From positions 360,157 through 424,156 of the forward strand of contig CAWHHU010000003.1 in NCBI GenBank assembly GCA_963829295.1: DNA of 64,000 nucleotides, given 5' to 3'. Under the pieces are notes generated by a model. It worked only from the letters and a program-made list of their open reading frames with translations, ran no database searches and had not been told where the DNA came from. The DNA is from an uncultured Chloroflexia bacterium. Lineage in GTDB: Bacteria > Chloroflexota > Limnocylindria > Limnocylindrales > CSP1-4. Shown piece by piece: positions 23,143 through 47,815 of this stretch. Numbering within the stretch: position 1 is the first letter of the stretch; each line of letters starts with the position of its first letter. The translations under genes were made by a program, and so were the position numbers.

Positions 23143-23219
23143 TGGTGGGCGATACTGGACTCGAACCAGTGACCTCATGCATGTCAAGCATGCGCTCTAA
23201 CCAGCTGAGCTAATCGCCC
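23143..23219 (-). tRNA. tRNA-Val (anticodon GAC), CCA encoded
   Basis: The minus strand reads GGGCGATTAGCTCAGCTGGTTAGAGCGCATGCTTGACATGCATGAGGTCACTGGTTCGAGTCCAGTATCGCCCACCA. This gives a cloverleaf with a 7-bp acceptor stem, anticodon stem CATGC/GCATG and loop TTGACAT. Confidence 0.9.
23179..23219. repeat. attL core: 41-nt direct repeat, equal to tRNA-Val nt 1-41
   Basis: Identical to 47769..47815 apart from a 6-nt CTCTAA duplication in the distal copy. Confidence 0.8.
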
Positions 23220-23282
23220 GATGATTTTGTCGAGCTCCTGTTCGGGTTCACCCGATAACTGGTTCTCGACGATCCTGGCCTC

Positions 23283-23311
23283 TTGACCATGGCGCTCGTA
23301 CACCCTATAAC
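23283..23311 (+). promoter_or_regulatory. Sigma70-like promoter TTGACC-17-TATAAC upstream of the integrase gene
   Basis: Near-consensus -35/-10 with 17-bp spacing, ~40 nt upstream of the int ATG. Confidence 0.4.
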
Positions 23312-23350
23312 TAACGTGGTTCCAACCCGCCGATCCGGGGAGCACGAACG

Positions 23351-24337
23351 ATGACCGGTCAAGCGGCCAAGGCCGCGATTGTAGCAACCGAGGGCGACCT
23401 CGGCGCCAACCTCGCCCGCTTCCGGCGCAGCCTGCGCGCCGAGAACGTCAGCCCCAACACGCTCCTCGCCTACGGTGGCGCGGTCGAGCGGCTCGCCGGC
23501 TACCTGACGGCCGAGGCAATGCCGACCGATGTTGGCGCCATTCGCCGCGAGCACATCGAGGCGTTCATCGCGGACGCGCTCGAGCGCTTCAAGCCCGCGA
23601 CCGCCAACCACCGCTTCCGCGGCGTCCAGCGCTTCTTCAACTACCTCGTCGATGAGGGCGAGCTGGCGGCGTCGCCAATGGCCCGGATGCGGCCGCCGCG
23701 CATTCCCGACGACCCGCCCGCGGTCCTGTCCCGGGCCGACCAGGCGCGCCTGCTCACGGCCTGCGAGGGCGCCGACTTCGAGGCGCGGCGCGACCGGGCG
23801 ATCATCAGCGTGTTCCTTGATACCGGGGCCCGTCGGGCCGAGGTGGCCGGTCTGCGCTGGACGCCCGCGGATGACGCGACCAACGACGCCGACCTCGACG
23901 GTCGCGCGATCAGGGTCCTCGGCAAGGGCCGGCGCGAACGGCTGGTCAGGATCGGCCACAAGACCGTCAAGGACCTCGATCGCTACCTCGCCCTGCGGGC
24001 GCGCCACCCGCAGGCGCACCTGGCCGCCCTGTGGATTGGTCGCCGCGGCGCGCTGACCGACTCGGGCATCGGGCAGCTCGTCCAGGAGCGGGGCCGGGCG
24101 GCCGGGCTCGGCGACAACCTCCATCCGCATCAGCTGCGGCACACCTTCGCCCATGAATGGTTGGCGGCCGGCGGAAACGAGGGCGATCTCATGCGGCTCG
24201 CGGGCTGGCGCTCGCGAGCGATGCTCCAGCGCTACGCGGCGTCGACCGCCCAGGACCGCGCGCTCGCTGCCCACGATCGGATCTCAGCCCAAGGATCGCC
24301 TCTGAGGAGACTTGGTCGCTCCGGCCCCGGAACTTAA
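23351..24337 (+). CDS. int: Tyrosine recombinase / phage-type integrase (XerC/XerD-like)
   Basis: N-terminal SAM-like core-binding domain. Catalytic R...HxxR...Y ([28 protein letters not shown]). Confidence 0.9.
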
Positions 24338-24491
24338 GGTCTGGACGATCGTCTTTGTGTCGGGATGGTCCGGCTTACGAAGCGGATGGGGCTGCCCTCG
24401 AGCGTCGACGCGTTAGCGGGCGCTCTTTGACACGGCCCGCTCCTTACGGCACGGAGAGGGACTGGTCAATCGACGCCGCGTGGATCCTCGT

Positions 24492-25304
24492 ATGCGCCTG
24501 ACCATCCGGAAGACCGCGACCCTGCTGGCCGCGATCGGCCTCATCGCCATCATGATGCCGCTCCAAGCTGCCCCGGTCCTGGCATCGGGGTCGTCGCAGT
24601 TCGACACCAACTACAACAACTACTGCATCCATGGATACCACAACGTCGAGCCGTATGGCTATGACTGGGTTCGGGCCGACGCGTCCGGCGACCCGAATGA
24701 TGTCGGCTCGCGCATCCTCGGAGCTCGTGGGAAGATAACCGCTCGCGCCCTCTGGCCGTGCCTCGACGGCGACGGGTTCTATGTGAGCAAGAGCCTGATC
24801 TTGGCGGCCGACATCCAGAGCGACGCGTCGAGAGATGGGGCCTACAACTTCGCCCAAGCGGGCCTTGGCAAGATCAACTACCAGTCTGGCCTCTACCAGT
24901 GTTCCGGCCAGGACCAGATGGTCAACGACCAGACACACTTTATCTACGTGCCCGACCCGACCGACACCGCCAATGGTGGTGGCAATTTCTGTCGCGCGGG
25001 CTTCGTCGACTTCAACAACGATGGCGTACCGGATGATCCAATCGGTGGCCGCCAGTACCTCATCTCGGTATTCGAGCACAACACCTCAAGCGGCGCGAAG
25101 AAATGGCGCTACTGCTTCGAAGACCTGTACACGTTGGCGACCTCATGCAAGAACACGCCACGGACGACGAACAAATGGCGGCGTCTCGGGCCACAATGCA
25201 GCATGGTGGGGATGCGAGATCGGCAACCAGGAGAATGCGCTCGGCACCCCAACCGACGTCAGCGCGACCACGATTTCGCAATCGCAGTACAAGAAGGCGT
25301 CTGA
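24492..25304 (+). CDS. Secreted hypothetical protein (signal peptide; Tyr/Trp/Asn-rich), probably frameshifted and continuing to 25452
   Basis: MRLTIRKTATLLAAIGLIAIMMPLQAAPVLASG is a signal peptide. The region is low-GC. The overlapping frame 24835..25452 carries a protein-like C-terminus (GQWWYTEDSNLVNNPWHTSLGNPWYFTYAQSQAGTGESVTCFTYSHTT). Confidence 0.45.
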   Translation: MRLTIRKTATLLAAIGLIAIMMPLQAAPVLASGSSQFDTNYNNYCIHGYHNVEPYGYDWVRADASGDPNDVGSRILGARGKITARALWPCLDGDGFYVSKSLILAADIQSDASRDGAYNFAQAGLGKINYQSGLYQCSGQDQMVNDQTHFIYVPDPTDTANGGGNFCRAGFVDFNNDGVPDDPIGGRQYLISVFEHNTSSGAKKWRYCFEDLYTLATSCKNTPRTTNKWRRLGPQCSMVGMRDRQPGECARHPNRRQRDHDFAIAVQEGV

Positions 25305-26269
25305 CGGACAATGGTGGTACACCGAAGACAGCAACCTCGTCAACAACCCTTGGCACACCAGCCTGGGCAATCCCTGGTACTTCACCTACGCGCAATCCCA
25401 GGCCGGCACCGGTGAGTCAGTGACCTGCTTCACCTACTCGCACACCACCTGATAGCGGCTCACGCCACCGCAACAAGGGGCCCCGCGGCTTCCCGCGGGG
25501 CCTCCGCGGGCCAGGGCAACTGGCTCATGGCCCGCGCACCGTCGACCTCCTCTTGGGAACAGGGACGGTCGAAGCCCGGCCCCACCCGAGGCTTATGGGG
25601 TCCTGGGAGGGCGTTGGGGTAGTAGCACCAATACCCATCGGCGCCTGCGGTGGCATCGGGTCCGAACGTTTGATACGCGGGCAGGTAGACTGGCGCTGGG
25701 CGGTTCAGGTCCTGAACGAGAACAAGCCCGACTGCCGAGAGCACAACGAGCGCAACGGCCATAGACAGCCTACGCATCGGCGGGCCGCCTCCAGGGAGGA
25801 GCAGAGCCCACGCGAACAGCGCCGACGCGGCCAAGACTACGAGCGGCGCATGGCGAGTGACGGGGTGCGCGAGTCCACCGAGGGCACTTGGGCCCCGCAG
25901 TGCCTCGTGGACCGGGACCGCGACCACCATGGCCGCTGGGGATGGACGGCCGCGACACGATTCGGGGGCCGTGCCGGCCGGCTTGGCTGAAGATGGATTG
26001 CGATGCGATCACTGTTTGGCCGACGCCGGAAATGACGGTGCATAGCCGAAAGTCTTCATCCAAGAATGTTATGCCCTGACTCTCGCCTGCATCTACGGGA
26101 AACCCCGCAAGAAGGCCCTGAGCTGTGCTTGGTTCGACCGAGCCTGCGTCACATTGCAGGAAGATGACGGCCATCGACGCGCCGATCCGTTCCAATGAAC
26201 CGTCACTCCTTCGGTTCGCGCAGGAGCATGCGCAGGGTGGTGACGGTCGGGGTCGGTGTCGGCGGCTAA

Positions 26270-27291
26270 GGGCCTGTGGCCGAATTCTCCCGTTCGGATC
26301 GGCCTGTTGTGACGCCTGAGCTGTCACCGCGGCTCGGCAGACTGCGGGCATGGCGTTCGCGATCGCTCTCTCCGACGAGCAGTGGGAGCTGGTGGCGGAC
26401 CTGTTCGATCCGCCCCGCCGACGCGGTGCGCCGGCCGTGATCCCGCGGCGCCAGATGGTCGACGCGATGCTGTTCATCGGGCGGACCGGGATCCAGTGGC
26501 GCTACCTGCCCGAGCGCTACGGGTCCTGGACCGCCGTCTGGGCCCAGTGGCGCCGCTGGCGCGCCAACGGGGTGTGGGCGGCGGCGATGACGAGGCTCGT
26601 CGCGGTCGTGCGCCGGTTTCACGAGCGCGAGCCGATCCCGTCGATGGTGATGGTCGACGCCCAGACCGTGAAGGGCGCCCGCTACGGGCCGACGTTCCAT
26701 GCGGCCGGCGGCCGGGGTGGCCGGACGATCGCACCAAGCGCACGCTGCTCGTCGAGATCCTGGGCCTGCCTGTCGCCGCGGCGGCCTGCTCGGCCCGGCC
26801 GCATGACGTGGTCGCTGGCCGGGAGCTCCTGCGCGAGCGGATCGACACCCTGCCGCGCCTCCGGGCGATCGTCGGCGACCGTGCCTATCGCGGCCTGGCC
26901 AAGCTCGCTGCCCGCAAGCGGCTCGCGCTCGACATCAAGGCGCCGCCGCCGGGTGCCAGCGGCTTCACCCCGCTGTGGCCGCTGTACAAGGTCGAGCACG
27001 CGATCGCCCAGCCCGGTCGCTGGCGCCGGCTGTCGCGCTGCGACGAGGGCAGCGAGGCGTCCGCCCGGGCGTGGCTCGAGGTCGCCTCGGTCGGCTATCT
27101 CGCCTGGCGCGCCTCGATCTGACCGCACCATCCCATCAGCCCCGGTGCGCGGTCACCTCCACCTGCTCCCGGCCTTGGCACCGACGCCCCACGGCTCACG
27201 CACGCGCGGCTTCGGGGCTTGGTCTCCATGCGTCCAGGACCCAGCCGGTCGCGAGGCTGCCAGCTGGCGTTCCCGAATTCGGCCACAGGCC
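26270..27291. mobile_element. IS5-family (IS427-group-like) insertion sequence, 1022 bp, perfect 18-bp terminal IRs, 3-bp TAA target-site duplication
   Basis: IR-L GGGCCTGTGGCCGAATTC (26270-26287) and IR-R GAATTCGGCCACAGGCCC (27274-27291). Both ends are flanked by TAA (26267-26269 and 27292-27294). Confidence 0.85.
26350..27122 (+). CDS. IS5-family transposase (DDE) in two frames joined by a -1 frameshift (programmed or mutational)
   Basis: Frame A (26350-~26720) has LSDEQWELVADLFDPP....IPRRQMVDAMLFIGRTGIQWRYLPERYGSWTAVWAQWRRWRANGVW...VMVDAQTVKGARYGPTFHAAGG. Frame B (~26700-27122) has DDRTKRTLLVEILGLPVAAAACSARPHDVV...IVGDRAYRG, which is the DDE core. Confidence 0.75.
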
Positions 27292-27742
27292 CTAAGCAAT
27301 TCCGCCGCCCGCTGCCGTGGCGCTGGGCCCGGAGGCGAACGCACTCGACCTCGGCGAGGTCTCGGGACGCGGCGACGTGGACCCGTCGTCGCGCTCGGGC
27401 AAACCAGCCCGGCTCCGTGCGCCGGTCCCTCGAGCGTCCGGGCCAGCAAGTGATCTGCCTGGTTGACATGCGACGGCCGTCGTCGCTCGCAGCGTCAGGC
27501 GGCGCTCGACCGTCGCTTGGCTGGCGCCGCGCAGCGGTTCGGCATCAGGCGACTCGGCCCGGTCGCTCTGGTGTAGGCCCCTGGGCGGCATGGAATCGCA
27601 GAGCGAAGTCGCGTTTCGGGACAGGCCGCTGCCACGCACGTCGCCTGGTCGTGCCGATCGTCGCGAACGGGTCGTGACCAGGTCGCGGCTATCGGTCCTG
27701 GACGCGCCGGGGACGCGACCGTCCGCGCGACACGCGCCCGGC

Positions 27743-28684
27743 TCACTCGACGAACCGCGCCAGCGCCGGGATCGTCGCGAACACGCGCTCGTCGAGCCCG
27801 TCGAGCCCGTCGGGCTCAGCCAGGTGGCCCGGCGTGCGCAGGGGCCACGGATCGCCCGTCCAGTGCGGCGCAAGCTCCGAGGTCCGGGCTCGGTCGCCGA
27901 CGGGTGACGTCCAGATCGCGTGGAGCGGATCGACCGCCAGGGTCGGCTCAGCGATGAGCCAGACGTGAATGGGCTCGCTCGGGTGGTCGCCCCGGGCGAT
28001 CAGCCGCCCGAGCGATGAAGCCCGGCGCGGCGAGTCGACAACGATCCCGACATGGACCGGCAGCTCGTCGCGCTGGCGCGCCAGGGCCGAGCGGTAGCGG
28101 CGGACCTTCTCCGGCAGGACGGCGCCGCGCTCGGTGCCGAGGTCGCGCTCGACGAACAGGACGATCGAGCGCCCGCCAACGCGGATGACGGCGAATGCGT
28201 CCGGCCGGAGCCAGCCGCCGAACAGACGCAGACAGGCGCGCTCGGGCACCCAGGCCGCGATCCCGGTCTCTGACCCAAGATCGGCCGCTCGCAGGAACGC
28301 TGCCAGCAGGTCGTGCGTGGCCAGCCCGTGGATGACGGGCGAGGTGACCTCGACGCCTCCGTCGAGCCGCGGCCGGCCGGAGGGCCAGACCAGCCGCTCG
28401 AGCCCGACGCGGGCGGTCTTGGTCAGCGCGTACGCGTAGCGGCCGCGCGGGCGCTGGCGGTTGGCGGCCCAGCCGCCCGACACCAGGCTGTACTCGGCGA
28501 GCCGAGCGAGCCTGCGCTGGGCGATCCGCCGATGGCCGTAGGCGAGCAGCGCCGCGAGCTCGGCAGTGATCACGTCACCGCCTAGGAGCCACAGCAGGAC
28601 CGCCCGGTCGCGCTCGGGAAGCGCGCTCCAGCCGGCGAGCCCCGGGGCGCTCCGGAGCGGGACGACCCGTGCTGTCGTCCTCAC
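27743..28684 (-). CDS. Replication-relaxation family protein (Replic_Relax-like, HTH N-terminus)
   Basis: LPERDRAVLLWLLGGDVITAELAALLAYGHRRIAQRRLARLAEYSLV resembles the Replic_Relax N-terminal wHTH motif (...RHRLAVLHRLGLV..). 313 aa. Confidence 0.65.
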   Translation of the reverse strand: MRTTARVVPLRSAPGLAGWSALPERDRAVLLWLLGGDVITAELAALLAYGHRRIAQRRLARLAEYSLVSGGWAANRQRPRGRYAYALTKTARVGLERLVWPSGRPRLDGGVEVTSPVIHGLATHDLLAAFLRAADLGSETGIAAWVPERACLRLFGGWLRPDAFAVIRVGGRSIVLFVERDLGTERGAVLPEKVRRYRSALARQRDELPVHVGIVVDSPRRASSLGRLIARGDHPSEPIHVWLIAEPTLAVDPLHAIWTSPVGDRARTSELAPHWTGDPWPLRTPGHLAEPDGLDGLDERVFATIPALARFVE

Positions 28685-29166
28685 GTGCGGCCCTGGCGGC
28701 GTGCCGACCGCGTCCGGCGCGCACGCGCCGAGAGATAGGCGAGCCGCGCGAAATGGGCCGACCGGGCATGGGCAGCGCGGCGCGCCCGCTCCGCCGGCGG
28801 AAGGGCGCCGTCGGGGTCCACAAGTCGCTCAAAGCTGGCGAGGAACGCGGCTCGGCCTGCGGCCGAGGTCTCGCGCGGGTCGTGCGTCGCGTGGAGGCGG
28901 TAGGCGCCGATCCGGCCGCGCAGCGAGCGCTCCGCCCGGCTCGGGCCGTCGTGTGCACCGTCGCGCCGTGCCCGGGTCACGCCGGCGCCTCGTGGATCTC
29001 CTCGTCGCCCCCGTCGCCAAGAACGCCCAGCCAGGCGTCGGTTGCGACTGGCGTCGGGCAGGAGTACGGCGTCGGATCGGTGAGGAGGTCGCCGAGCGCC
29101 GTCCGGTGGCCGCCGGGGAACAAGCAGAGGATCCGCAGGCACGTTCGGTCGCGGGTGCGGAGGCAC
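28681..29166 (-). CDS. Hypothetical small protein, real start probably internal, overlapping a diverged repeat
   Basis: The ORF overlaps the upstream gene's start. The C-terminal ~80 aa look protein-like and the N-terminus is R/P-rich. Confidence 0.2.
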   Translation of the reverse strand: MPPHPRPNVPADPLLVPRRPPDGARRPPHRSDAVLLPDASRNRRLAGRSWRRGRRGDPRGAGVTRARRDGAHDGPSRAERSLRGRIGAYRLHATHDPRETSAAGRAAFLASFERLVDPDGALPPAERARRAAHARSAHFARLAYLSARARRTRSARRQGRT

Positions 29167-29408
29167 CCCGGATGAATGACCAGCAGGCGATCACATGCGG
29201 GAGCGGACACAAACGAACCGATCACCCGTATGGGGTCCCGCGTCGAAGGTGCGCCGAGCACACACGGACCGCGCGGCAGCAGTGGGGCACGCAAGACCCC
29301 ACGGCGCGACCGATCCATCGACCGACCAAACGCGTGTTTGGCGCCGTTCCGGACGATCGCGTTGTTCCGTTTGTGCAACGTCCCGCGTTTCCCAATTCAG
29401 GGCGACCT

Positions 29409-30496
29409 CAACCAGGGGCTTCATCGACCCTCGATTTCGAGGGCGGCCCAGTCCCATCTCCTCTCCGGCGGCACGGCCATGAACCCCGGAGCCACCGATC
29501 GATCCACGCCGCCGTCGCGAGGGGACGGAGCCTTCCGATCGACCGGCCGGCCGCCGGGCCGCACGGTCACGGCGCCGGCCTCGAGGGTGACGACCCGCCA
29601 CGGCGTCTGCGACCGGCAGGGCGACGGCCCCGACCCTGATTGACACGGCGGACGGCTTGCGCTGGCAGCCATGGTTCCGCCGAGACGTCGAGCGGGCGGT
29701 CGACCGCCGAGGTCAGCCGCCGGCTTCGACCCTAGCCACTTCGGCCGTCGCAGGGAACCCGGATTCCGTGCAAGATTCTGTGTATTGTCAGCTCCGCTAC
29801 GTCCCGATTGACACCCAGAATTACGTGTGCGACGCTCCCATCGTGCTCAAGACGAAGCGGACGTACAACCTCAGCCGGCGGACGATCGAGACGGTTCAGG
29901 CGCTCGCGGAGCGGAAGGTCGCGCCGACCCAGGACGCCCTCGTCGAGCTCGCCGTCGACGAGCTCGCCCGCCATGTCCGCGAGACCGACGAAGCGGCCGC
30001 CTGGGCGGGCGCGGCCACCGATCCGGACTTTGTCGCCGAGGCCGCCGAGCTCGAGGCGGCATATGGCGACGCCGACCCGGCCACGTGGCCGAGACCGTAG
30101 GGCTGCCAGCGCTCCGCTGGGCCGTCGTGATCGTCGGACTCGATCCGGTGGAGGGTCACGAGCAGGCCGGTGAGCGGCGGGCGCTGGTCGTGAGCTATGA
30201 GGCGTTCCACCGCTCGGGGCTGCTGACCGTGTGTCCGATCAGCGCCGCCCGCGAGAAGCCGCGCTATCCGGGCGAGGTCGCGATCCCGGCCGGCGAAGGT
30301 GGCCAGACGAAGTCCGGGCTCATCCTGTGCGCCCAGGTCCGGACGATCTCGGTCCGTCGGATCCGGGCGACCGGCATCCTGCCCGGTGGCGGCGTCGCCC
30401 ACCTCACCGACGCCCGGATCCGCTCGGCGGTGCGAGCGGCCCTTCGACACCACCTCGGGCTCGATATCCCAGCCCAGTCGGACGGGGCGGCGAGCG
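29409..30496. repeat. Copy A of a duplicated 1088-bp segment (operator region + RHH antitoxin + MazF toxin)
   Basis: Identical to 40277..41228 except for a 136-bp deletion in copy B. Diverged (~78%) homology extends left, with 28985-29140 matching 39360-39515. Confidence 0.85.
29843..30100 (+). CDS. Ribbon-helix-helix type antitoxin, cognate to the downstream MazF
   Basis: VLKTKRTYNLSRRTIETVQALAERKVAPTQDALVELAV... is an RHH DNA-binding N-terminus with an acidic C-terminal tail. It is located just upstream of the toxin and overlaps it by 16 nt. Confidence 0.5.
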   Translation: MLKTKRTYNLSRRTIETVQALAERKVAPTQDALVELAVDELARHVRETDEAAAWAGAATDPDFVAEAAELEAAYGDADPATWPRP

Positions 30497-30507: not shown

Positions 30508-30578
30508 AGCGCTTCACGCCATCGCGGGTGCCGTCCCCGGTGCACCAACATCGGAGACCACGCAAGGACTCCGTAGGC

Positions 30579-33200
30579 CTACTCGCCGCGAAGCGAGGCG
30601 GCCGGAAGCTCCCGATAGACGTGGGCGAGGGGCACCAGCGCGGCCAGCGTGGTGGCAAGGACAGCGCTCAGGAGCGCGAGCCCGAGGCTCACCGCGAATG
30701 CTATGGGCATGACCCTGAGCACTAGCCCGATCGCCCCGACGATCAGCGTCGCTCCGGTGCCGCCTATGCATCCGATCACGATCGCTTGGATCGTGACAAC
30801 GGTCGCGACAGCCCGCCGTGGCCAGCCCAGGGCGCGAAGCGCCCCGAACTCCGCCTGCCGCTCGACATAGCCGAGGGTGACGATCTCTGCGACGGCCAGC
30901 GCTCCGATCACCAGTGTGACCAACGCAACCACGAAGTTGAACGTTCGTGCGCGGGCAGCGATGTGAACGCCGAGCAACGTGGTGTCCAGCTGCCCCGCGA
31001 ACCCGGCAGCCACGAGCGTGGAGCCGCCGACGAGCACCGCGCCGAGGCCAATGGTCACCGCGCCGAGCAGCGCCTCGGTGCGCCGGCTGCCAAGTACCTC
31101 CCTGAGCCCGAGCCCGGGAACAGACGTGACTCGTCGGACCCGTTCCGGGCCTGTACGCATGGCGCGACCGGCTGACGCCCGTGACGACGCGAGAGCCGGA
31201 ACCAACCCGGCCACCCCCGAGATCGCGAGTGCCAGGGGCACCACGGCTGCAAGCTGCCACGGCTCGATCCGGAGCGCAAGGGCGGCCTGCAACGCAGTGG
31301 CGGCCACCAACCCGATCACGGCGACCACCGCGCCCAGGAGCAGGACCTCGATCTCAACGAGGGCTCCGACACGCCATGCGGGCCAGCCCAGGGCGCGCAG
31401 GACGCCAAACTCGGCAACTCGACGCCGACTGGCCAGGTAGGCCGTCGCTGCCACCAGCACCGTGGCAGCGATCAGCACGACGATCAGGATTGCCAGATCC
31501 TGGGTCGCGAGTGCCTGCGCGAAGCGGATCGCCACCCCCTTGACGGACCATTGCTCGGAGACCGTCAGGGCGGGCCGGCCGAAGTCACCGGCTGGCAGGT
31601 CGACGACCACATGGCGGGGCGACGACCCGGCGACGATGTCGACATCGAGCCCGGTCGCGTCGTGGATGTCGGCGGCCACCTGAGCGAGCCGATCCTGGGC
31701 CTCTTGCCCCGGGTTTTCCGTTCCCGCCACGCGGACGCGGATGGCGCTGATGAATGCCGCACCGGCGGCGCCATCGTAGCGAGATGGATCGGCAAGCCAG
31801 GCTGCCGTCTGGAGCGAGACCAGGATGAGTGGCGGGCTGGTCACGTACGACGCCGGAGACCGGGTCGCGCCGAGCTGCCGGCCATCCGCCACCTGAACGG
31901 CCGGCAGTGAATAGGTCTCGAGTCGCCCGCCTGCCAGGATGTCGAAGCCTGGCACGCAGTCAGGGTTGAACTGACCGATAGGGTCCCAGCGGCTGAACAC
32001 TTCCGACCGGCGCTGCTGGTCATGGCGCACCACCGGCCGGAACCAGGTGTCAGTGGACTCGGGCGGGACGTGGGTCGCGCCGCCCGGGGTGATGGTCACG
32101 CTGGACTCATAGATCGAGGGATCGGTCGGTTGAGCATGGGCGGCGAGGTGATCGGGGCCGAGCAGGTCGTAGCTGACGTCGCCGATCGACCACAGCGGTG
32201 ACGTGTCGTAGAACGATCCGCTGTTGAGGGTCGGCAGGAACGCGCGATACGCGTCGTTTGCGCTCGCCGTGCGGCTGTCGACCGGTTGCCACCCCGAGAG
32301 GGTGTCGACACCGTCCTTGGCGAGCACCTCCGGATTCGCCGCGCGCTCGATCGTCATCGTGAGCGTCTCGTCGAGGAACGAGCGGTCGCTGACGAGGACC
32401 GGCAGGACAGGCTGTGGGCCGGCGGGCGAGCTGACCTCTGTCGGCACGTCGGACGCCTGGAGATAGCGACCCTGGGTCACGCACCGGTCGAGGTCGACGA
32501 GGCTGGCCTCCGCAACCGGATCGATGCCGGCGATGACGAACGGCTCCGGGAAGTTCACGAAGGCGCCCGCTGTCCCTGCCGGCAAGCCGCGGACCGGGAG
32601 TGCGTCGGGCGTCTGACCACCAAAGCAGGTGACCGTCGCGTCGCAGGCGATCTCCAGATCACCGACCTCGAGGTGGGCCGCCCCGACCGCGCTGCGCACG
32701 ACCCGGCCCTGGGGCGCGATCACCAGGTAGCCAGCAGGCTCCGGCGGATACCGACTCAGCCCGGCCTCCGCGGTGATGCTGGTCGTGATCCGAAGAACCG
32801 TGACTCCTGTGCCGTCGGCGAGCGACGAGAGATCCACCGGAATGCCGGCCGGCCATTGCACGAAGCCGGCGACCGCGATCGGCGCGGCGACCTCGACCTC
32901 GGGGACCGCGCGGATGCTCGCGAGCTGCGCCTCGGTGATCCCGCCGTACAGGCCGGAGATGGCATTGGGTCTGACCAGGCCCTGCGCCTGCTCGAGTGCG
33001 GTCGCCGACCCCACCGGGCGAACGAGCAGCTGATACGGTCCGCCCCATGCTCGGGTGATGTCGCCTGTCACGCTCGCCTGCGTCGTGCGGGTCGTCCCGG
33101 CCATCAACACGAACCCAATGACCGCGGTGGCCAGGCCAGCTGTTGCGAGGAGGGTGGCGAATCGCCGGGAAGTGATTTCCTGAACTGCGAGCCTGAGCAT
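30579..33200 (-). CDS. ABC transporter permease with two FtsX domains (MacB-like, 873 aa)
   Basis: N-terminal TM, large extracytoplasmic domain, FtsX TM bundle, second ECD, second FtsX bundle. Immediately downstream of the ABC ATPase. Confidence 0.85.
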   Translation of the reverse strand: MLRLAVQEITSRRFATLLATAGLATAVIGFVLMAGTTRTTQASVTGDITRAWGGPYQLLVRPVGSATALEQAQGLVRPNAISGLYGGITEAQLASIRAVPEVEVAAPIAVAGFVQWPAGIPVDLSSLADGTGVTVLRITTSITAEAGLSRYPPEPAGYLVIAPQGRVVRSAVGAAHLEVGDLEIACDATVTCFGGQTPDALPVRGLPAGTAGAFVNFPEPFVIAGIDPVAEASLVDLDRCVTQGRYLQASDVPTEVSSPAGPQPVLPVLVSDRSFLDETLTMTIERAANPEVLAKDGVDTLSGWQPVDSRTASANDAYRAFLPTLNSGSFYDTSPLWSIGDVSYDLLGPDHLAAHAQPTDPSIYESSVTITPGGATHVPPESTDTWFRPVVRHDQQRRSEVFSRWDPIGQFNPDCVPGFDILAGGRLETYSLPAVQVADGRQLGATRSPASYVTSPPLILVSLQTAAWLADPSRYDGAAGAAFISAIRVRVAGTENPGQEAQDRLAQVAADIHDATGLDVDIVAGSSPRHVVVDLPAGDFGRPALTVSEQWSVKGVAIRFAQALATQDLAILIVVLIAATVLVAATAYLASRRRVAEFGVLRALGWPAWRVGALVEIEVLLLGAVVAVIGLVAATALQAALALRIEPWQLAAVVPLALAISGVAGLVPALASSRASAGRAMRTGPERVRRVTSVPGLGLREVLGSRRTEALLGAVTIGLGAVLVGGSTLVAAGFAGQLDTTLLGVHIAARARTFNFVVALVTLVIGALAVAEIVTLGYVERQAEFGALRALGWPRRAVATVVTIQAIVIGCIGGTGATLIVGAIGLVLRVMPIAFAVSLGLALLSAVLATTLAALVPLAHVYRELPAASLRGE

Positions 33201-33208
33201 CGACGCGG

Positions 33209-33940
33209 CTACTCCGCGTCCAGAACATTGACCACGCCGGGCAGGCCTTCGTCCAGGCGCTCGTCGCTGGTCAGGCGTCCGCTCACCAGGTGCAGCACGC
33301 GATCCGCAGCCGCGGCGACCGCGGGATCGTGGGTGGCGACGACGACCGTCAGGTCACTCTCCTCTCGGAGTTGATCGAGATAGGCCATGAACTCGGTGGT
33401 TCGGTCTGCATCAAGGTTCCCGGTTGGCTCGTCAGCGAGCAGCAGCGCGGGCGCACCCACCATCGCGCGTGCCAGCGAGACCCGCTGGCGCTCGCCACCG
33501 GACAGTCGAGCCGGCGGGAAATCGGTCCGATCGGCCAACCCAAGGGAGGCGAGAAGCGTGCGAGCGCGCGGTTCAAGGCTGCGGCGAGACTCCCACGGCA
33601 AGCGTGCGGCGATGACGTTGTCAAGGGCGCTGAGCCCTGGGAGGAGAAACGGCTCCTGGAACACCAGGCCCATGAGCCTGGCACGGAGCGCCGTGCGTTC
33701 GCGGTCGCTGGCGGCGTCCATCGCTTCGCCCAGAACCTTGACGGTTCCGTGGGTCGGTAGATCGAGCCCAGCGATGAGGTTGAGGAGGGTGGTCTTGCCT
33801 GAGCCCGATGGGCCTGTGATGGCAACCGCCTGACCCTGTTGCACCTCAAGGGTGACGTCCAGCAGGGCGGCCACCTCGGTTGGCCCGACCTGATAGACCC
33901 GGGAGAGTGCCTGGAGCTCGATGGCCGGCAGCAGGCGCAT
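33209..33940 (-). CDS. ABC transporter ATP-binding protein (MacB/LolD-type)
   Basis: Walker A GPSGSGKTTLLN. Signature LSGGERQRVSLARA. Walker B LLLADEPTGNLD. H-loop. Start MRLLPAIELQ at 33940. Confidence 0.9.
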   Translation of the reverse strand: MRLLPAIELQALSRVYQVGPTEVAALLDVTLEVQQGQAVAITGPSGSGKTTLLNLIAGLDLPTHGTVKVLGEAMDAASDRERTALRARLMGLVFQEPFLLPGLSALDNVIAARLPWESRRSLEPRARTLLASLGLADRTDFPPARLSGGERQRVSLARAMVGAPALLLADEPTGNLDADRTTEFMAYLDQLREESDLTVVVATHDPAVAAAADRVLHLVSGRLTSDERLDEGLPGVVNVLDAE

Positions 33941-34497
33941 CAGGCGAGCTTGGCGGACCTCGTGCCCACTCGCCTGCGCGCCCGAGTGCGCGCCACGACC
34001 GCCGATGACGTGTCGTGGATATGGGTGGCCCACCGAAGGTCGGCTTCAGTACGCCGGATCTCGCGGTCGAGGGCGGATTGACCAAAGCCTTCGTCCCCGG
34101 GAATTCCACGTCGGGCGGCTCGAAGCCGATGCAGCTCAACCGTGCGCTCACGGACGACGGTCTCGGCGAGCGCGTCAAATCGATCGGGAATGGCGAGCCT
34201 CGCAACAGCCAGACGCACGACGATCTCGTCGGCCGTGCTCGGTTCCCAGAGCCAGGCCTCTGCAACACGACGACCAGCAGGTGTCAGCGTGAGGAGGTGG
34301 CGATCGGGCCGGCTCACCTGACGGACTCGGCGGGGATCGACCAGCCCATCGCGCTCCATGCGCCCGAGCGTGAGATAGACCTGACTGGTGCGGGTCGACC
34401 AGAGGGGGCCGAGCTCGGCCTCGAGCGTGATCACGAGCTCATAGCCATAGGAGGGTCCCACGAGGAGAAGTGCGGCGATTGCCCCATGCAGGTTCAT
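33940..34497 (-). CDS. PadR-family transcriptional regulator
   Basis: GYELVITLEAELGPLWSTRTSQVYLTLGRMERDGLV is a PadR winged-HTH. It is followed by a C-terminal helical domain. Confidence 0.8.
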   Translation of the reverse strand: MNLHGAIAALLLVGPSYGYELVITLEAELGPLWSTRTSQVYLTLGRMERDGLVDPRRVRQVSRPDRHLLTLTPAGRRVAEAWLWEPSTADEIVVRLAVARLAIPDRFDALAETVVRERTVELHRLRAARRGIPGDEGFGQSALDREIRRTEADLRWATHIHDTSSAVVARTRARRRVGTRSAKLA

Positions 34498-35212: not shown

Positions 35213-35539
35213 TCGCGATCGGCACGGTCGTGCTCACACACCGGTGCTCGATCGGCCGGTTGACACCTCCGACGGTCCGTTGTCGTGTCTTTGGCGTCTC
35301 CGCGGTCGACAGCCGCGACCACGTCGCGACCGGTGCGCATTCCGGGGAATCCGATCGCCCATTCCGGGGTTTTCGATCACCCTCGGTCGGAGGCCGCGGA
35401 GCGGCCGACACGAGGGCTGGTTCAGCCCCTGATGGTCACCTCCTCTCGATGGTCTGCGGGTAGTCTGGCACGCCGCCCGTGGTGGACGACGGTGTCGACG
35501 CGTCCGGGGCCGGTGCGACCCCGGCTGGGTCGTCGGGAG

Positions 35540-35732
35540 CCTTGACCGTCCGGCGGCTCGAGTCGCCCTTGAGCTCCAGCCCGTAGGCGTTGTGGACCAG
35601 GCGGTCGAGGATCGCGTCGGCGACGGTGGGCTCGCCCAAGGCCTCGTGCCAGTGCCCGACCGGGAGCCGGCTCGTGACGATGGTCGAGCGCAGGCCTCCG
35701 CGATCCTCGATCACCTCCAGCAGGTCGGCCGC
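35540..35732 (-). pseudogene. IS21-family IstB-like helper ATPase C-terminal fragment
   Basis: ...TSRLPVGHWHEALGEPTVADAILDRLVHNAYGLELKGDSSRR matches the IstB C-terminal signature (TSN...EW.E.FGD...A.AILDRL.HH.....I.GESYR). There is no upstream ATPase core. Confidence 0.45.
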
Positions 35733-36058
35733 CCGGGCGGGAGGCACCGGGGAGAGCCGATCCCGATCAGCGACCCGTGAACGGGCGAGATCCGGGCGGC
35801 GCAGCTGTTCGTGGCGGTGATCGGCGCGTCTTCGTACACGTACGCCGAGGCGACGCCGTCCCAGGAGCTGCCCCACTGGCCTGGGCGCCTTCAAGAAGCG
35901 TGCACGCCGTGGCCAGGGCTGGCCGCTCGCGCGCCGAAGCAGAGCCGAACATCGAAGAGGCTGCGCTCCCCGCCGGCATCATCCCGGGAGGGCTTGAGAA
36001 TGGTCCAGCGAGGAACAGGTGCCGAGCATCCCCTTGCGGCCCAGCGCTGCGCTGCCTG

Positions 36059-36697: not shown

Positions 36698-36720
36698 GGG
36701 ATCAGACGACGACGGGACCA

Positions 36721-37877: not shown

Positions 37878-37878
37878 A

Positions 37879-38412: not shown

Positions 38413-38414
38413 GG

Positions 38415-39352: not shown

Positions 39353-40120
39353 TCACCGGAGCGCCTCGTCACGCTCCTCGTCGCCGCCCTCACCGAGCAG
39401 GTGTAGCCACCCCTCGGTGGCACCTGGCGTCGGACAATGCCGCGGCATCGGATGGGCAAGGAGGTCGCCGAGCGCCGACCGGTGGCCGCCGGGGAACAGC
39501 GGCCCGATGCTGGTCCCGAGCCCTGCCCTCCGGAGCTCGCCGAGCCCGAGCGCCCAGGCCCGACCGGCGAGCTCAGGGTGACCGCCGTCCCGCCGGACGA
39601 CCCGGGCGAGGAAGCCGACCCGCTCTCGACCCGGAGCCACGAACAGGACATGCGAGCCCTGCCGGCGAGCGCGGTGGCGTAGCGGGCGAGCTTGTCGCGG
39701 CTGTCGGGTCGGTGCTCGGTGCCCTCGTCGATCTCGAGGCACAGGACGCCCGACGCCGTCGACTCCCGCAGGACGACGATGCTGGCGGGGTAGACGCCGG
39801 CGAGGAGTTGGGTCGCGTTGCCCTCCGGGTGCTAGAGCTGGACGATCGGTTCGGCGGTGGGCTCCGAGCGGACGAGGGCGCAGATGCTCTCGACGACGTT
39901 GAGCGAGTGGCCCAGTTGCGTGCCGGCGCGGAAATGGGTGAGCGACTTGTGGCCGAGACTTGTAGCCGAGACGGCGGCGACCGCGGGCCGAGACGCGGAA
40001 GGCGAGCGACGCACAACCGCGCGTCTGTGGTGGGAGGACGGCGCGATCGACGTAGCCGAGGCGGTGGAGGACCGCGAGACGCTGCTGGGCGGTCTGCCGG
40101 CGGCGGTTGACGAGGGTCAC
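39353..40120 (-). pseudogene. Replication-relaxation family pseudogene (paralogue of 27743..28684; frameshifts and internal stop)
   Basis: The N-terminus QRLAVLHRLGYVDRAVL is the Replic_Relax HTH. Homology to copy A continues in a second frame (LNVVESICALV..PASIVVLRES...EIDEGTEH...KLARYATALAGR) through a TAG at 39832-39834. Confidence 0.5.
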
Positions 40121-40276
40121 AAGCTGAGCGGTCGTGGCAACGTCGCAGCGGCAGAGAATCCGCGGGCGGGCCCGGTCACGGGTGCGGAGGCACCCCGGAT
40201 CGATGACTAGCCGGCGATCACATGCGGGAGCGGATCATGACGAGGCCCAGATCTCGCACGCGTTCGAGGACATGCT

Positions 40277-41228
40277 CAACCAGGGGCTTCATCGACCCTC
40301 GATTTCGAGGGCGGCCCAGTCCCATCTCCTCTCCGGCGGCACGGCCATGAACCCCGGAGCCACCGATCGATCCACGCCGCCGTCGCGAGGGGACGGAGCC
40401 TTCCGATCGACCGGCCGGCCGCCGGGCCGCACGGTCACGGCGCCGGCCTCGAGGGTGACGACCCGCCACGGCGTCTGCGACCGGCAGGGCGACGGCCCCG
40501 ACCCTGATTGACACGGCGGACGGCTTGCGCTGGCAGCCATGGTTCCGCCGAGACGTCGAGCGGGCGGTCGACCGCCGAGGTCAGCCGCCGGCTTCGACCC
40601 TAGCCACTTCGGCCGTCGCAGGGAACCCGGATTCCGTGCAAGATTCTGTGTATTGTCAGCTCCGCTACGTCCCGATTGACACCCACGATGACGTGTGCAA
40701 CGCTCCCATCGTGCTCAAGACGAAGCGGCCGCCTGGGCGGGCGCGGCCACCGATCCCGACTTTGTCGGCGAGGCCGCCGAGCTCGAGGCGGCATATGGCG
40801 ACGCCGAGCCGGCCACGTGGCCGAGACCGTAGGGCTGCCAGCGCTCCGCTGGGCCGTCGTGATCGTCGGACTCGATCCGGTGGAGGGTCACGAGCAGGCC
40901 GGTGAGCGGCGGGCGCTGGTCGTGAGCTATGAGGCGTTCCACCGCTCGGGGCTGCTGACCGTGTGTCCGATCAGCGCCGCCCGCGAGAAGCCGCGCTATC
41001 CGGGCGAGGTCGCGATCCCGGCCGGCGAAGGTGGCCAGACGAAGTCCGGGCTCATCCTGTGCGCCCAGGTCCGGACGATCTCGGTCCGTCGGATCCGGGC
41101 GACCGGCATCCTGCCCGGTGGCGGCGTCGCCCACCTCACCGACGCCCGGATCCGCTCGGCGGTGCGAGCGGCCCTCCGACACCACCTCGGGCTCGATATC
41201 CCAGCCCAGTCGGACGGGGCGGCGAGCG
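40277..41228. repeat. Copy B of the duplicated TA segment, with an internal 136-bp deletion
   Basis: Identical to 29409..30496 minus the 136 bp between two GACGAAGCGG direct repeats (A: 29851-29860 and 29987-29996). Confidence 0.85.
40711..40832 (+). pseudogene. RHH antitoxin remnant (RHH domain deleted, downstream frame shifted)
   Basis: VLKTKR is followed directly by the post-deletion sequence. The 136-nt deletion is not a multiple of 3. Confidence 0.5.
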
Positions 41229-41353
41229 CGATAGGGGTTGACCTGGCGCAGCGCGAAGACGGGACCGTCACGAAGCCCGAGCGACCCGAGGGTGAAGCCA
41301 TGACGCCGTCGCCCGGCGTGTCAGACGACCGGCAGCCAACAGAAAGGAGGTGA
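40817..41353 (+). CDS. mazF: MazF/PemK-family toxin, copy 2 (intact core, divergent C-terminus)
   Basis: Identical to copy A through ...DIPAQSDGAAS, then a different 40-aa tail. Confidence 0.7.
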   Translation: MAETVGLPALRWAVVIVGLDPVEGHEQAGERRALVVSYEAFHRSGLLTVCPISAAREKPRYPGEVAIPAGEGGQTKSGLILCAQVRTISVRRIRATGILPGGGVAHLTDARIRSAVRAALRHHLGLDIPAQSDGAASAIGVDLAQREDGTVTKPERPEGEAMTPSPGVSDDRQPTERR

Positions 41354-41811
41354 TCGTCAGGGGGTGAAGAGCGCCCAGGTGTCAGGCGCTGCGCGGCCTC
41401 CGACGCCGAGTGATCGAAAACTCCAGACTGACTGATCACTTTCGCCGGGATACGCATCATCGTCCAGTCCCGCTGAGTCGCTGCCGTGGCTGGCACACGG
41501 CGGAGTAGGTGTCAGCGGGATCTCCCGTCCGTTGTCCGTTTGGGAAGGAGATTTTCCCACGCGATTTGACGAGGGCTCGGCTCCACGGCGCAGTCATCGG
41601 TGTGGGCGGCGGCGCTCCTCGAGCCGTCGGCCGACGACGCGACCCGTCCCCGATCTCGTGGCGCCCATCGCGGTTCGCGACCTCGTCAACCCTGCCGCGT
41701 TTCGGGGCGGCCGTCCGGACCGAGCTCGAGGCGACGCGCGGGTGCTCTGGTGGAACGTCTTGCCCGTGCCCGTTACCTCCGGCTCGTTCTGACGCCTCGG
41801 TCGCTGATGGC

Positions 41812-42369: not shown

Positions 42370-42380
42370 TGGACCCCTAT

Positions 42381-43280: not shown

Positions 43281-43422
43281 GGCCGGTGTCTTCGGCGTCA
43301 CCGTGCTCACAGCATGTACATCCATGCCGACAAGTCAAGTCATCTACGGTGAAGGGTTCAGTTTCCCGATTCCGGCTCCTCTGTACCGGTAGCATGCGAT
43401 CCCCCTGCAGACGAGGAGATCC

Positions 43423-45317: not shown

Positions 45318-46104
45318 TCAGTCAGTCGGTGCCGCAGTCGATCCAGGGGCGGTCGCCGCCCTCTCGGACGACGACCTGCGCACCGAGCACGATCGCATGC
45401 GGGACGCGCTCGGTTTCCCTCGCGGTCGGACCACGACGGTAAGCCGCTTGGTCGGCCGCGGCCACCTGAATGACCAGGTCGAGGAGACCGACCAGCGAGG
45501 CCATCCGGTCGTACTCTCCGAGTTCGCCCCGGGCCAGTCTCTCGTCGCCTCGATGCGGCTCGACCAGGGTCCGTCCGAAGCCCGCTTGGTAACCGCGTCC
45601 ACGGCGGCTGCAAACGCACGGAGTGCTCGCGCTGCGCTCGGGTTCGGCGACTCGGCGCCGGACCAAATCTGGGATGACGACTCTACGGGCGGCTGGGGCG
45701 TCGCCTGGGGTCGCACCGAGGCCGGTTACGCGGTCCGCGGTGACGGAACCATCGTCTACGTCTGGCCGGACGGCCGGATCCAGAGCTTCGCCAACCAGGC
45801 TCGCACACTCGCGGCGGCCCCCGGTGCGCGGATCAGCTCCGGAGAAGCGATCATGCTGTCGCAGGCGTTCATCACCTCGCCGGGCCGACAGGGACCGACG
45901 TTCGTCATAGCCAAACCGAGACTCGAATGGGTCAGCCCCAACGGCGCCTTCGATTCCGCACTGCCTGCGGACGGCCTGCCTGTCTTGCGGCTCGCCTGGG
46001 TCGTCGATGCGCAATCGGAGGACGAGAACGCAGTGCCGTGGCTGGTCACCGTGTTCCTTGACGCCGGCAGCAGCCAGACCCTCGGCGGCGAGGTAGTCGA
46101 GTAG
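45223..46104 (+). CDS. Secreted hypothetical protein
   Basis: Signal peptide MNAIAKSIASVALVVLLTSSITGDIGAVSAV. GGGGGG-AAGCTGG-ATG (SD-like). Overlaps the previous ORF by 95 nt in another frame. Confidence 0.45.
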   Translation: MNAIAKSIASVALVVLLTSSITGDIGAVSAVDQSVGAAVDPGAVAALSDDDLRTEHDRMRDALGFPRGRTTTVSRLVGRGHLNDQVEETDQRGHPVVLSEFAPGQSLVASMRLDQGPSEARLVTASTAAANARSARAALGFGDSAPDQIWDDDSTGGWGVAWGRTEAGYAVRGDGTIVYVWPDGRIQSFANQARTLAAAPGARISSGEAIMLSQAFITSPGRQGPTFVIAKPRLEWVSPNGAFDSALPADGLPVLRLAWVVDAQSEDENAVPWLVTVFLDAGSSQTLGGEVVE

Positions 46105-46222
46105 CCAGCGAAGTCTGCGGGCCGGCCACCACATCGAGTGGAGCCGGCCCGCCATCGAGACTGCTGGCGGCATCACGATCATTACCCGAGAAGTCACGCC
46201 TCGTGGAAAGGGAAATGCGCAG

Positions 46223-47398
46223 ATGAGCGGACGATGGCGCTGGAGCGTGTTGGCGGCGCTCATCGTGCTCGGTGCGACCGGCTGCTCGGATAATCAGCCG
46301 GGCGCTGTCCGGCCTTCCGTGGCGTCGGCATCGAGGCCTTCGTCGGATGTCCCGACCACGGCCCAGATCTCCAGCCCAGTCTCAACGTCGACCGTGAACG
46401 AAGCGTCGCGCGGCCGGTTCCGTCCGACCGGGGCGCCCATGATCGCGCGGGCCGAGGCGCTCGCAGCGCCGCTGCCCGATGGTCGCGTCCTTGTCGTCGG
46501 CGGCTGCGCCTGTGCGGACGCCGAGGTCTACGATCCGGCTATTGGGACATTCTCCGCGACGGGCCCCGTCTCGCACGTTCGCGCTCAGGGCGAGACCTTG
46601 ACACCACTTCCAGATGGGCGCGTCCTGCTCGCGGGCGGCTGGTCACCCTCTGGCCTTGGGGTTCCCGAGGCCGAGGTCTACCATCCCGCGTCGGGCTCCT
46701 TCGCCGACGTCGGCGACCTCATTGTCCCGGTCGCGTTCCATGCCGCGATCACCCTCGCGAACGGGCGCGTGCTCCTCGCGGGCGGCGCTGACGACGAAGG
46801 CGACCGGCTTGTTGTCACCCAGGTCTTCGACCCTGCGACGAACACGTTCTTCCGCGGCCAGGACCTGCCCGGCGCGCGTGCCGGGGCAGCCACCGCGACA
46901 CTGGAGGATGGTGCCCTGATCGTCGGCGGTGCCGGGTCCTGCACTCGCGACGACCCGCTCCCTGATGCGCTCCGCGTGAACGACACCGGCTTGGTCACCT
47001 CGGTCGCCACGCTGATCACGCCCCGCACGGGTGCCACCGCGGTCGGGCTCGTCGGCGACAGCGTGGTCGTGGTCGCCGGCAGCACGAGCTGTCGCACCGA
47101 AGAGCCGATCGGCAAGGCGGAGATCCTCGCTTCGGGCGCGGCGGCGTTCGCGTCCGCGGGCGAAACGGCCCCCATGCTGGCCGCGGCGGCGGTCCTGCTC
47201 GACAACGGATCCGTCCTCGTGCTAGGTGATGGCACTCCCGCCTCGGTCCTATACGAGATGCCGGCGGGCGTCCTCGTTCCGGGCCCCGATTTGACGCATG
47301 CCCGGTTCCGGCCGGCGATGGTCGGGCTCGACGACGGGAGCATTCTCGTGGTTGGCGGGAGTGACGAGCGGATCGCAGCCGAGATATACGAGCCCTGA
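46223..47398 (+). CDS. Kelch-repeat beta-propeller lipoprotein
   Basis: Lipobox LGATGC. A disordered S/P/T linker. Seven repeats of the L(P)DGRVL(V/L)(A/V)GG...(E)VYDP type. Confidence 0.65.
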   Translation: MSGRWRWSVLAALIVLGATGCSDNQPGAVRPSVASASRPSSDVPTTAQISSPVSTSTVNEASRGRFRPTGAPMIARAEALAAPLPDGRVLVVGGCACADAEVYDPAIGTFSATGPVSHVRAQGETLTPLPDGRVLLAGGWSPSGLGVPEAEVYHPASGSFADVGDLIVPVAFHAAITLANGRVLLAGGADDEGDRLVVTQVFDPATNTFFRGQDLPGARAGAATATLEDGALIVGGAGSCTRDDPLPDALRVNDTGLVTSVATLITPRTGATAVGLVGDSVVVVAGSTSCRTEEPIGKAEILASGAAAFASAGETAPMLAAAAVLLDNGSVLVLGDGTPASVLYEMPAGVLVPGPDLTHARFRPAMVGLDDGSILVVGGSDERIAAEIYEP

Positions 47399-47768
47399 TC
47401 CTACTGTCGCCTCTTGAGTGCCGTCCTGCGGAAATCCCGTACGGGAATATGCTCGTGTGACTCATCCGCTGACCGAGGAGTGGATCGTCATTCCGACCTG
47501 TGGGCTGCACTGTTCGCCGAACCGACCATCGTGGCCGCCCCCTCCCACCGGGAGGGCCACCAGCGGCGTCCAAGCGAACAGACGCTCGAGCGCCTCGCGG
47601 CCGCCATGTCTTTGTCGATGTTGCTGGTCACAGTCCAGGCCGGTCCGCTGCGAGGCCGCCTCTGCTCCGCTGTTGCCCGCTAGGGCAGTCTAGAGCACTT
47701 CACTGGGCACGAACGGAAGCCCCTCCCATGCACGGGAGGGGCCGATTCCATGGCGCTTGCGACCGGCC

Positions 47769-47815
47769 GCATGTCAAGCATGCGCTCTAACTCTAACCAG
47801 CTGAGCTAATCGCCC
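47769..47815. repeat. attR core: 5' 41 nt of tRNA-Val with a 6-nt CTCTAA internal duplication (tRNA fragment, non-functional)
   Basis: GCATGTCAAGCATGCGCTCTAAC[TCTAAC]CAGCTGAGCTAATCGCCC matches 23179..23219. There is no D/T-arm completion and no 3' half. Confidence 0.8.

Follow-up and report, generated by a model that had tools for sequence, protein, structure and literature searches.

A 24.6-kb island that appears to replace the 5' part of tRNA-Val(GAC) in an uncultured Limnocylindria bacterium

Tyrosine integrases that target tRNA genes have reportedly been found to use attP sites in the anticodon loop, and an island of M. loti is said to have integrated in the reversed orientation, in which the fragment of the tRNA gene is a 5' fragment. 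The Islander catalogue counts 3919 islands, 159 of them with a 5' fragment and the other 3760 with a 3' fragment; 2083 are at anticodon-loop attP sites (the "A" sublocation), and the integrase search behind the catalogue explicitly excludes Xer-subclass recombinases. Integration into tRNA genes (tDNA) with a 5' fragment is described in a review as seldom seen in bacteria, and rebuilt bacterial tRNA genes use their original promoter with very few exceptions (Badel et al. 2021, PMC8371274). That source also summarizes the pTN3-like integrases of Thermococcales, whose attB corresponds to the 5' half of a tRNA gene and whose integration leaves the rebuilt tRNA to be expressed from the DNA of the element (Cossu et al. 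2017, via Badel et al. 2021, PMC8371274). Here, we analyzed a stretch of 64,000 nucleotides (the window) from an uncultured Chloroflexota bacterium (GCA_963829295.1, contig CAWHHU010000003.1, positions 360,157 to 424,156), in which a tRNA-Val(GAC) gene adjoins the gene of an Xer-like tyrosine integrase. We propose, with a probability of about 0.88, that a 24.6-kb island was inserted in this chromosomal tRNA gene by its own integrase, at an anticodon-loop site and with an attP carrying the 5' part of the tRNA. The original prediction, made from the letters of the window, implied that such a 5'-half arrangement was new. This was overstated, since the class is catalogued in Islander and reviews cite Zhao & Williams 2002 and archaeal pTN3; the window island is a clean, well-bounded further case of a known, uncommon class of reversed tDNA integration.

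The window contains one tRNA gene detectable by ARAGORN, tRNA-Val(GAC) at 23143-23219 on the minus strand, and its 5' end at 23219 faces an open reading frame (ORF) that starts at 23351. ARAGORN and Pfam thus agree with the predicted pairing of an intact tRNA with an integrase gene. Nucleotides 1 to 41 of the tRNA (23179-23219, minus strand) recur in the same orientation at 47769-47815, where the copy consists of two exact blocks (23 nt and 25 nt) whose overlap is a tandem duplication of the 6-nt CTCTAA, as had been noticed from the sequence. The 41-mer had no further match in the window at up to 3 mismatches and zero matches in 100 shuffles. We designate 23179-23219 as the identity block of attL, with the anticodon loop TTGACAT (tRNA nt 33-39) as the probable overlap region, and the displaced 5' fragment at 47769-47815 (minus strand) as attR, in which the 23 nt nearest the crossover are intact. 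The island consists of 23220-47768 and, in addition, a single copy of the 41-nt att block. It has the anatomy of the islands catalogued by Islander: an intact tRNA gene at one end and a cognate fragment in the same orientation at the other, the 5'-end fragment lying upstream of the gene on the tRNA strand, a tyrosine integrase gene inside, a length within 2-200 kb, and absence of the segment from the same site in related genomes, in an inter-species comparison. We also considered a hidden repeat of the 3' half, which would have made this an island of the usual orientation, and rejected it, as no second copy of the tRNA-Val 3' half was found within the window.

The conserved left flank, downstream of the tRNA, is formed by thrS (20980-22848, minus strand; Pfam tRNA-synt_2b, HGTP_anticodon, and tRNA_SAD), the host gene for threonyl-tRNA synthetase. 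With thrS as a probe we retained the 80 best genome loci, and all 80 came from Chloroflexota metagenome-assembled genomes labelled Ca. Limnocylindria or Limnocylindrales, with a top thrS identity of 86%. In nearly all of these relatives, tRNA-Val(GAC) lies ∼300-400 nt upstream of thrS, a linkage showing that the 3' part of the tRNA and thrS belong to the ancestral chromosome. In six of them (L002, L003, L004, L007, L008, and L011), homologs of 50.1-63.7 kb of the window lie upstream of tRNA-Val-thrS, and L007 additionally matches 48806-49894 and 47769-47842, while none of the six loci matches 23220-47768. Since the homologs of 50-64 kb lie directly upstream of tRNA-Val in these relatives, the segment 23220-47768 is an insertion. 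The comparison with relatives lacking the island, which the original prediction had put forward as a check, therefore came out in its favor, between species. The right flank opens with a host ORF (47945-50092, minus strand) that has a homolog upstream of tRNA-Val in L007 and no Pfam or NCBIfam match. The rebuilt tRNA-Val, with a host-derived 3' part and a 5' part (nt 1 to ∼39) supplied by the element, has the same sequence (100% identity) as the uninterrupted tRNA of L002, L004, and L007.

The sequences upstream of the two tRNA copies identify which of them is original. In relatives, the 21 nt directly upstream of the intact tRNA-Val form a conserved motif, GTGCTATCCTCCGCGCCCGAA, seen in L004, L007, L012, L018, L024, and L037, that contains a TG-extended −10-like TATCCT; the conserved −10-like motif, TGCTATCCT (TGCTATYCT), lies 12 nt upstream of the tRNA. 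In the window, the counterpart GGTGCTATTCTCCGCGCCCGAA adjoins the displaced fragment at 47816-47837, and the working tRNA has unrelated upstream DNA. The native upstream region attached to the fragment extends over 47816-47842 (minus strand), matches GTGCTATCCTCCGCGCCCGAA, and has its −10-like motif, TGCTATTCT, at 47827-47835. Because the native motif stands beside the fragment and not beside the working tRNA, we identify the fragment as the original 5' half, moved away together with its native promoter region, and the 5' half of the working gene arrived with the element. Together with the empty sites of the relatives, this supports the claim that the island sits on the promoter side of the tRNA and is bounded by a duplicated 5' half. 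The displaced native promoter points into the island. Directly in its path, just inside the island end and directly downstream of the tRNA fragment, lies a 10-bp G+C hairpin (47717-47746, minus strand; RNA fold of 47690-47770, −38.6 kcal/mol, z = −2.3). The terminator scan did not call this hairpin, which is no canonical terminator; it may stop transcription that enters the island from the native tRNA promoter.

This layout matches that reported for the M. loti island: both have a tyrosine integrase, an intact tRNA at one end, and a 5' fragment in the same orientation upstream, and in both the element restores the 5' part and would have to provide upstream signals. The window island differs in its host, an uncultured Chloroflexota (Ca. 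Limnocylindria), and in its short, Xer-like integrase. This protein of 328 aa (23351-24337, plus strand) is encoded divergently from the tRNA by an ORF that starts 131 nt from the tRNA 5' end. Pfam recognizes Phage_integrase and a SAM-like N-terminal domain, an architecture consisting of a SAM-like core-binding domain and a catalytic domain without an arm-binding domain. R161, K192, H260, R263, W286, and Y295 are invariant in an alignment of 16 homologs. The best PDB matches were XerD and XerA and the best NCBIfam matches XerC, XerD, and XerA, all of them under half of the cut-offs; the scores for XerC and XerD were 148 and 131 bits, against equivalog cut-offs of 335 and 330, which places the integrase outside these two families. 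It thus resembles the XerC/XerD/XerA chromosome-dimer resolvases, its best sequence matches, in having two domains and ∼300 aa, but it is island-borne, adjacent to its own tRNA att site, and missing at this locus in relatives. At E < 1e-20, it matches more than 4000 proteins in databases, most of them metagenomic.

The arrangement recurs within the integrase family. In nine other Limnocylindria species, a divergently oriented homolog of 37-51% identity is located 67-268 nt upstream of tRNA-Val(GAC), and homologs of 62-86% identity show the same layout at tRNA-Val(GAC), tRNA-Gly(CCC), and tRNA-Thr(CGT) on long contigs. We then scanned metagenomes with the integrase family alignment and considered the 80 closest loci returned. 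A tRNA was present within ∼200 nt upstream of the integrase gene at 38 of these 80 loci, with its 5' end facing the gene in 20 cases and its 3' end in 18. Besides the window island, complete reversed islands were found at tRNA-Pro (L094, 4.2 kb, fragment nt 1-39), tRNA-Met (L110, 7.9 kb, fragment nt 1-38), and tRNA-Gly (L112, 2.9 kb, fragment nt 1-40), and an island of the usual orientation was found at tRNA-Asn (L133, 7.7 kb, fragment nt 28-75). In all four reversed islands, the identity block runs from exactly tRNA nt 1 to a point 0-2 nt beyond the 7-nt anticodon loop, and the displaced fragments keep an upstream TAnnnT hexamer. The blocks of the usual orientation, in L133 and in a 3' fragment in L112, begin at nt 28-30. 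As the reversed blocks end just past the loop and the usual ones begin at nt 28-30, the segment that they share is the anticodon stem-loop.

Two loci bring both orientations close together. At L112 (3179-3224, 9752-9827, and 12637-12676), tRNA-Gly(CCC) has the 2.9-kb reversed island on its 5' side and, across the gene and 6.5 kb off on its 3' side, a degenerate 3' fragment (nt 30-75), which overlaps the 5' fragment over nt 30-40, the anticodon loop region; both sides of this tRNA gene have been used. Two sister integrases from the same metagenome, 68% identical, both adjoin the same tRNA-Asn(GTT), one in the reversed orientation (L132:38-110) and one in the usual orientation (L133:47-121 and 7785-7832), the fragment (nt 28-75) being in hand for L133 and not for L132. 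On a neighbor-joining tree of the surveyed integrases the orientations interleave, and the more distant relatives found on viral contigs are mostly of the usual orientation, 8 against 2 reversed. These observations come from a distance tree, from short contigs, and from five islands known at both ends; within those limits, they suggest that, in the clade nearest the window integrase, attP often changes which half of the tRNA it carries. We consider the odds evenly balanced that the integrase belongs to a large, mostly uncultured clade of short Xer-like integrases whose attP tRNA half switches readily.

Some loci in these surveys deserve separate mention. No 5' fragment was detected by BLAST or a Hamming scan in the 10-kb flanks of L082, L083, and L084, so either these islands exceed 10 kb or the fragment was lost. 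At L027, two extra tRNA-Val 5' halves stand in tandem, ∼800 bp apart, upstream of the intact gene (7922-7954, 8725-8765, and 9602-9678). Both end at nt 41 and each has its own TAnnnT promoter-like upstream sequence; with no integrase present, they may be decayed or cis-mobilizable mini-elements. Many contigs among L087-L165 begin only 200-330 nt upstream of the integrase gene, and the thrS contigs L013 and L035 begin inside the tRNA, the pattern expected if assemblies break there through island polymorphism in the sampled populations.

The 7-nt anticodon loop, which forms the inner end of the identity block in the four complete reversed islands, is the best position for the crossover. The original prediction had put it on the 3' side of the loop; the anticodon region holds, and the four islands move the position into the loop itself. 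The window site shares with the anticodon-loop attP class a crossover segment made of the 7-nt loop with its palindromic stem and an identity block that runs to one end of the gene, but it is the mirror image of that class, since the block runs to nt 1 and not to the 3' end. We propose that recombination takes place in the anticodon stem-loop, where the 7-nt loop would be the likely overlap and the palindromic stem would provide the two core binding sites. The attP of the element would carry the 5' part of the tRNA (nt 1-41) instead of the usual 3' part. Integration would join the host 3' part to the element-supplied 5' part beside the integrase gene, yielding the intact tRNA at 23143-23219, and would displace the original 5' part and its native promoter by 24.6 kb to 47769-47842 as a dead fragment, which would later have gained the 6-nt duplication. 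The rebuilt tRNA would from then on be transcribed from element DNA. The interior is a mosaic in which an insertion sequence (IS), the remains of an IS21 element, and a 1.1-kb duplication of recent date accompany the cargo of toxin-antitoxin and transporter genes. At the level of comparative anatomy, we regard this mechanism as established: the comparisons demonstrate the insertion itself, where it begins and ends, its site, its orientation, and its recurrence in the integrase family, and the cleavage positions, the promoter, and mobility today are inferred.

We next consider the 131-nt spacer between the tRNA and the integrase gene (23220-23350), an element-derived sequence that would correspond to the P arm. 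Its plus strand contains TTGACC (23283-23288) and, 17 nt further, TATAAC (23306-23311), with the segment ACAGCGCTC/ATGGCGCTC between the two hexamers. This module is common to relatives of both orientations and to elements on Val, Gly, Thr, and Phe tRNAs, and we read it as the integrase promoter. ATAACT(G/A) is present twice in direct orientation (23254-23262 and 23306-23314), the second copy overlapping the integrase −10, and the spacers of relatives of both orientations contain ATAACTG two or three times, also in direct orientation. Furthermore, a 10-mer, CCATGGCGCT, is found in both predicted attP arms, int-proximal at 23287-23296 and far at 47748-47757. The ATAACT(G/A) repeats and the 10-mer are candidate protein-binding sites. 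Many reversed spacers carry a GAGCACGAAAC-like box just upstream of the tRNA, which is not −10-like, and manual inspection of 31 reversed spacers revealed conserved boxes and no credible −10 at a sensible distance.

How the rebuilt tRNA is transcribed bears on the comparison with the pTN3-like elements, which, in the account cited above, share with the window an attB in the tRNA 5' half and a rebuilt tRNA next to element DNA. There, the archaeal "suicidal" integrase gene is split by integration and the tRNA is read from the integrase promoter, whereas the window integrase gene is intact, is separated from the att block by 131 nt, and points away from the tRNA, an arrangement distinct from the pTN3/SSV type. 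We infer that the rebuilt tRNA must be transcribed from element DNA, in or beyond the spacer. The original prediction had left a choice between a promoter supplied by the element and read-through from the island. Its first half survives in that element DNA lies upstream of the tRNA, with no promoter returned by the scan described below, and read-through from island genes is unlikely because the integrase gene and the next ORF are on the opposite strand. tRNA-Val(GAC) decodes GUC, presumably the commonest valine codon given the GC3 of 77-94% in the genes called in the window, and expression of the rebuilt tRNA is therefore very likely.

The interior of the island is a mosaic. An IS5-family IS (26265-27297) has 23-nt inverted repeats (96% matched), DUF4096 (transposase N-terminus), and CTAAG on both sides. 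A Replic_Relax protein (27743-28684, minus strand; Pfam PF13814, 7e-19; weak PHROG match to "replication initiation by nicking") is encoded by the only plasmid-like replication or mobilization gene found in the island. Where two Replic_Relax genes had been predicted, Pfam and a tblastn search of this protein against the window recovered this one only. A 1.1-kb stretch with a PemK/MazF toxin gene (29407-30496, plus strand; PemK_toxin) is repeated at 99% identity, with a second PemK toxin gene, at 40275-41228 (plus strand), in keeping with the two MazEF modules expected. Upstream of the duplication, a weaker similarity (78-87%) links 28985-29207 to 39361-40234. The cargo further comprises an FtsX permease, an ABC ATPase (ABC_tran), and a PadR regulator (30579-34497, minus strand), and Pfam also detected MauE, an IstB fragment, and a Kelch-repeat protein, with many ORFs left without a family. 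The predicted inventory of an integrase, an IS, an ABC exporter, and Mau-like genes thus agreed with Phage_integrase, the IS5-family IS, FtsX plus ABC_tran, and MauE. The C-terminal fragment of IstB, the IS21 helper (35334-35894), and a 143-nt inverted repeat pair (75% identity, with 41314-41456) are probably IS21 debris. The G+C content is 67.4% in the island and 71-72% in the flanks and varies from 53.8% to 77% in 500-nt windows, in line with the predicted swings between ∼55% and ∼72%. No FtsK/Tra translocase or type IV secretion gene was present among ∼40 ORFs, so the island does not have the hallmarks of integrative and conjugative elements or of their actinomycete type. Searches of the unannotated ORFs against PHROGs and NCBIfam gave nothing beyond the weak nicking-initiator match of Replic_Relax.

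The two species with the closest integrases, L082 and L086, have in common with the window island only the int-proximal 1.1 kb and 28509-28938, the 5' region of Replic_Relax being conserved next to the integrase gene in both. With sharing confined to the integrase end and a stretch near Replic_Relax, cargo evidently turns over. The related reversed islands of L084 and L082 carry cargo wholly unlike that of the window, with SNF2/DEAD helicases and DpdG (Dpd-like DNA-modification defence) at tRNA-Thr(CGT) in L084 (11009-20957) and a 2545-aa RHS/YD-repeat protein at tRNA-Val(GAC) in L082 (13280-20957). Between thrS and the 3' end of tRNA-Val, L082 (8273-9795) and L086 (5028-9794) also contain an additional 1.5-4.7 kb that the window lacks, which suggests that the 3' side of tRNA-Val may be an insertion point too. 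In the host flanks of the window, we noted a 60-nt coding tandem repeat (98% identical) at 48398-48507, within the family-less ORF 47945-50092, and a 21/42-nt periodic coding repeat at 20000-20125, within ORF 19829-20638.

Several results weigh against an insertion by the island's own integrase as we propose it. The closest relative is only 86% identical in thrS, which makes the empty-site comparison one between species and not between strains. A consensus scan for sigma-70 sites returned zero in 22850-23400 on both spacer strands, and the same scanner found zero native sigma-70 promoters in 47816-47944; looking for a tRNA promoter in 23220-23350 and 47816-47944, as had been recommended, thus gave no scanner match in either interval. 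The T-at-position-6 rule of this scanner also misses the evident integrase promoter TTGACC-N17-TATAAC. On visual inspection, the tRNA strand of the spacer had no TAnnnT hexamer suitably spaced from the tRNA. Searches with Pfam, NCBIfam, and PHROGs revealed no excisionase, conjugation, or phage genes among the ∼40 ORFs, where ORF calling at high G+C is imperfect. The attP junction of an excised circle had no exact match in one scan of viral contigs (IMG/VR). Finally, given the 6-nt duplication in the fragment and the IS and duplications inside, the island may be old and immobile.

The alternative that survives best retains the integration as described and holds that the island is a fixed relic that can no longer excise, the rebuilt tRNA being a host gene with a captured upstream region. 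The duplication in attR, the disruption of the interior by the IS, the lack of an attP junction in the viral-contig scan, and the lack of a recombination directionality factor, transfer genes, or phage genes among the ORFs scanned all fit this view. On the other hand, the integrase ORF is intact with all catalytic residues present, attR is unchanged over the 23 nt next to the crossover, the integrase promoter module is conserved, and a near-identical copy exists in another sample: L001, a 3.3-kb Logan contig from the independent sequencing run ERR11718636, is 99.94% identical to window 23191-26511 and ends inside the IS5-family IS. We regard loss of mobility as a tentative possibility, somewhat on the improbable side, and consider that the island may still be mobile today.

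Less probable, and in our judgment unlikely, is that the 24.6 kb accreted from at least two separately arrived elements, by tandem site-specific insertion or transposition, so that the att pair would bound no single unit. The G+C swings (54%-77%), the IS5-family insertion flanked by CTAAG, the IstB fragment with its 143-nt inverted repeats, the stretch of 1.1 kb duplicated at 99% identity, and the restriction of common sequence with the L082 and L086 islands to the two segments given above are what accretion would produce, but mosaic interiors are normal for single islands, and a single integrase gene was found among the island ORFs scanned. A search for a third tRNA fragment inside the island was negative even at E = 10 with 7-nt words, so there is no trace of tandem att-mediated accretion, and we rejected tandem islands recognizable by internal att remnants. 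A third possibility is that the 5' fragment arose independently of the integrase, as a tRNA pseudogene or a partial duplication made locally, and that the island came otherwise. The 6-nt slippage duplication does show that replication makes errors at this locus, but we hold this origin to be highly improbable, because the native upstream sequence that relatives have beside the intact gene is attached to the fragment, the same nt-1-to-loop block bounds three other islands with related integrases at other tRNAs, and its end falls at the anticodon loop each time.

For this genome, insertion of a single island by its own integrase fixes the island ends to the nucleotide and explains the orphan half-tRNA. 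It also means that tRNA-Val(GAC) now depends on element DNA for its transcription, an entanglement of host and element. The interest of the island itself is moderate to low and that of the family-level pattern somewhat higher. If the clade indeed switches tRNA halves, reversed integration would be a routine option for anticodon-loop recombinases with symmetric cores, and catalogues may under-count it since Xer-like proteins are filtered out. The elements would also carry a compact, portable signal that drives tRNA expression in many phyla, with GAGCACGAAAC and the ATAACTG boxes as candidates. The short integrases occur in Chloroflexota and, going by the name that one source gives to a homolog, in Saccharimonadales; with their 38-41-nt tRNA identity blocks, they are candidate tools for inserting DNA at chosen sites in uncultured lineages of soil and freshwater. 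A family with about equal numbers of both orientations would be a good system in which to learn how attP changes the tRNA half that it carries and what minimal promoter the element brings.

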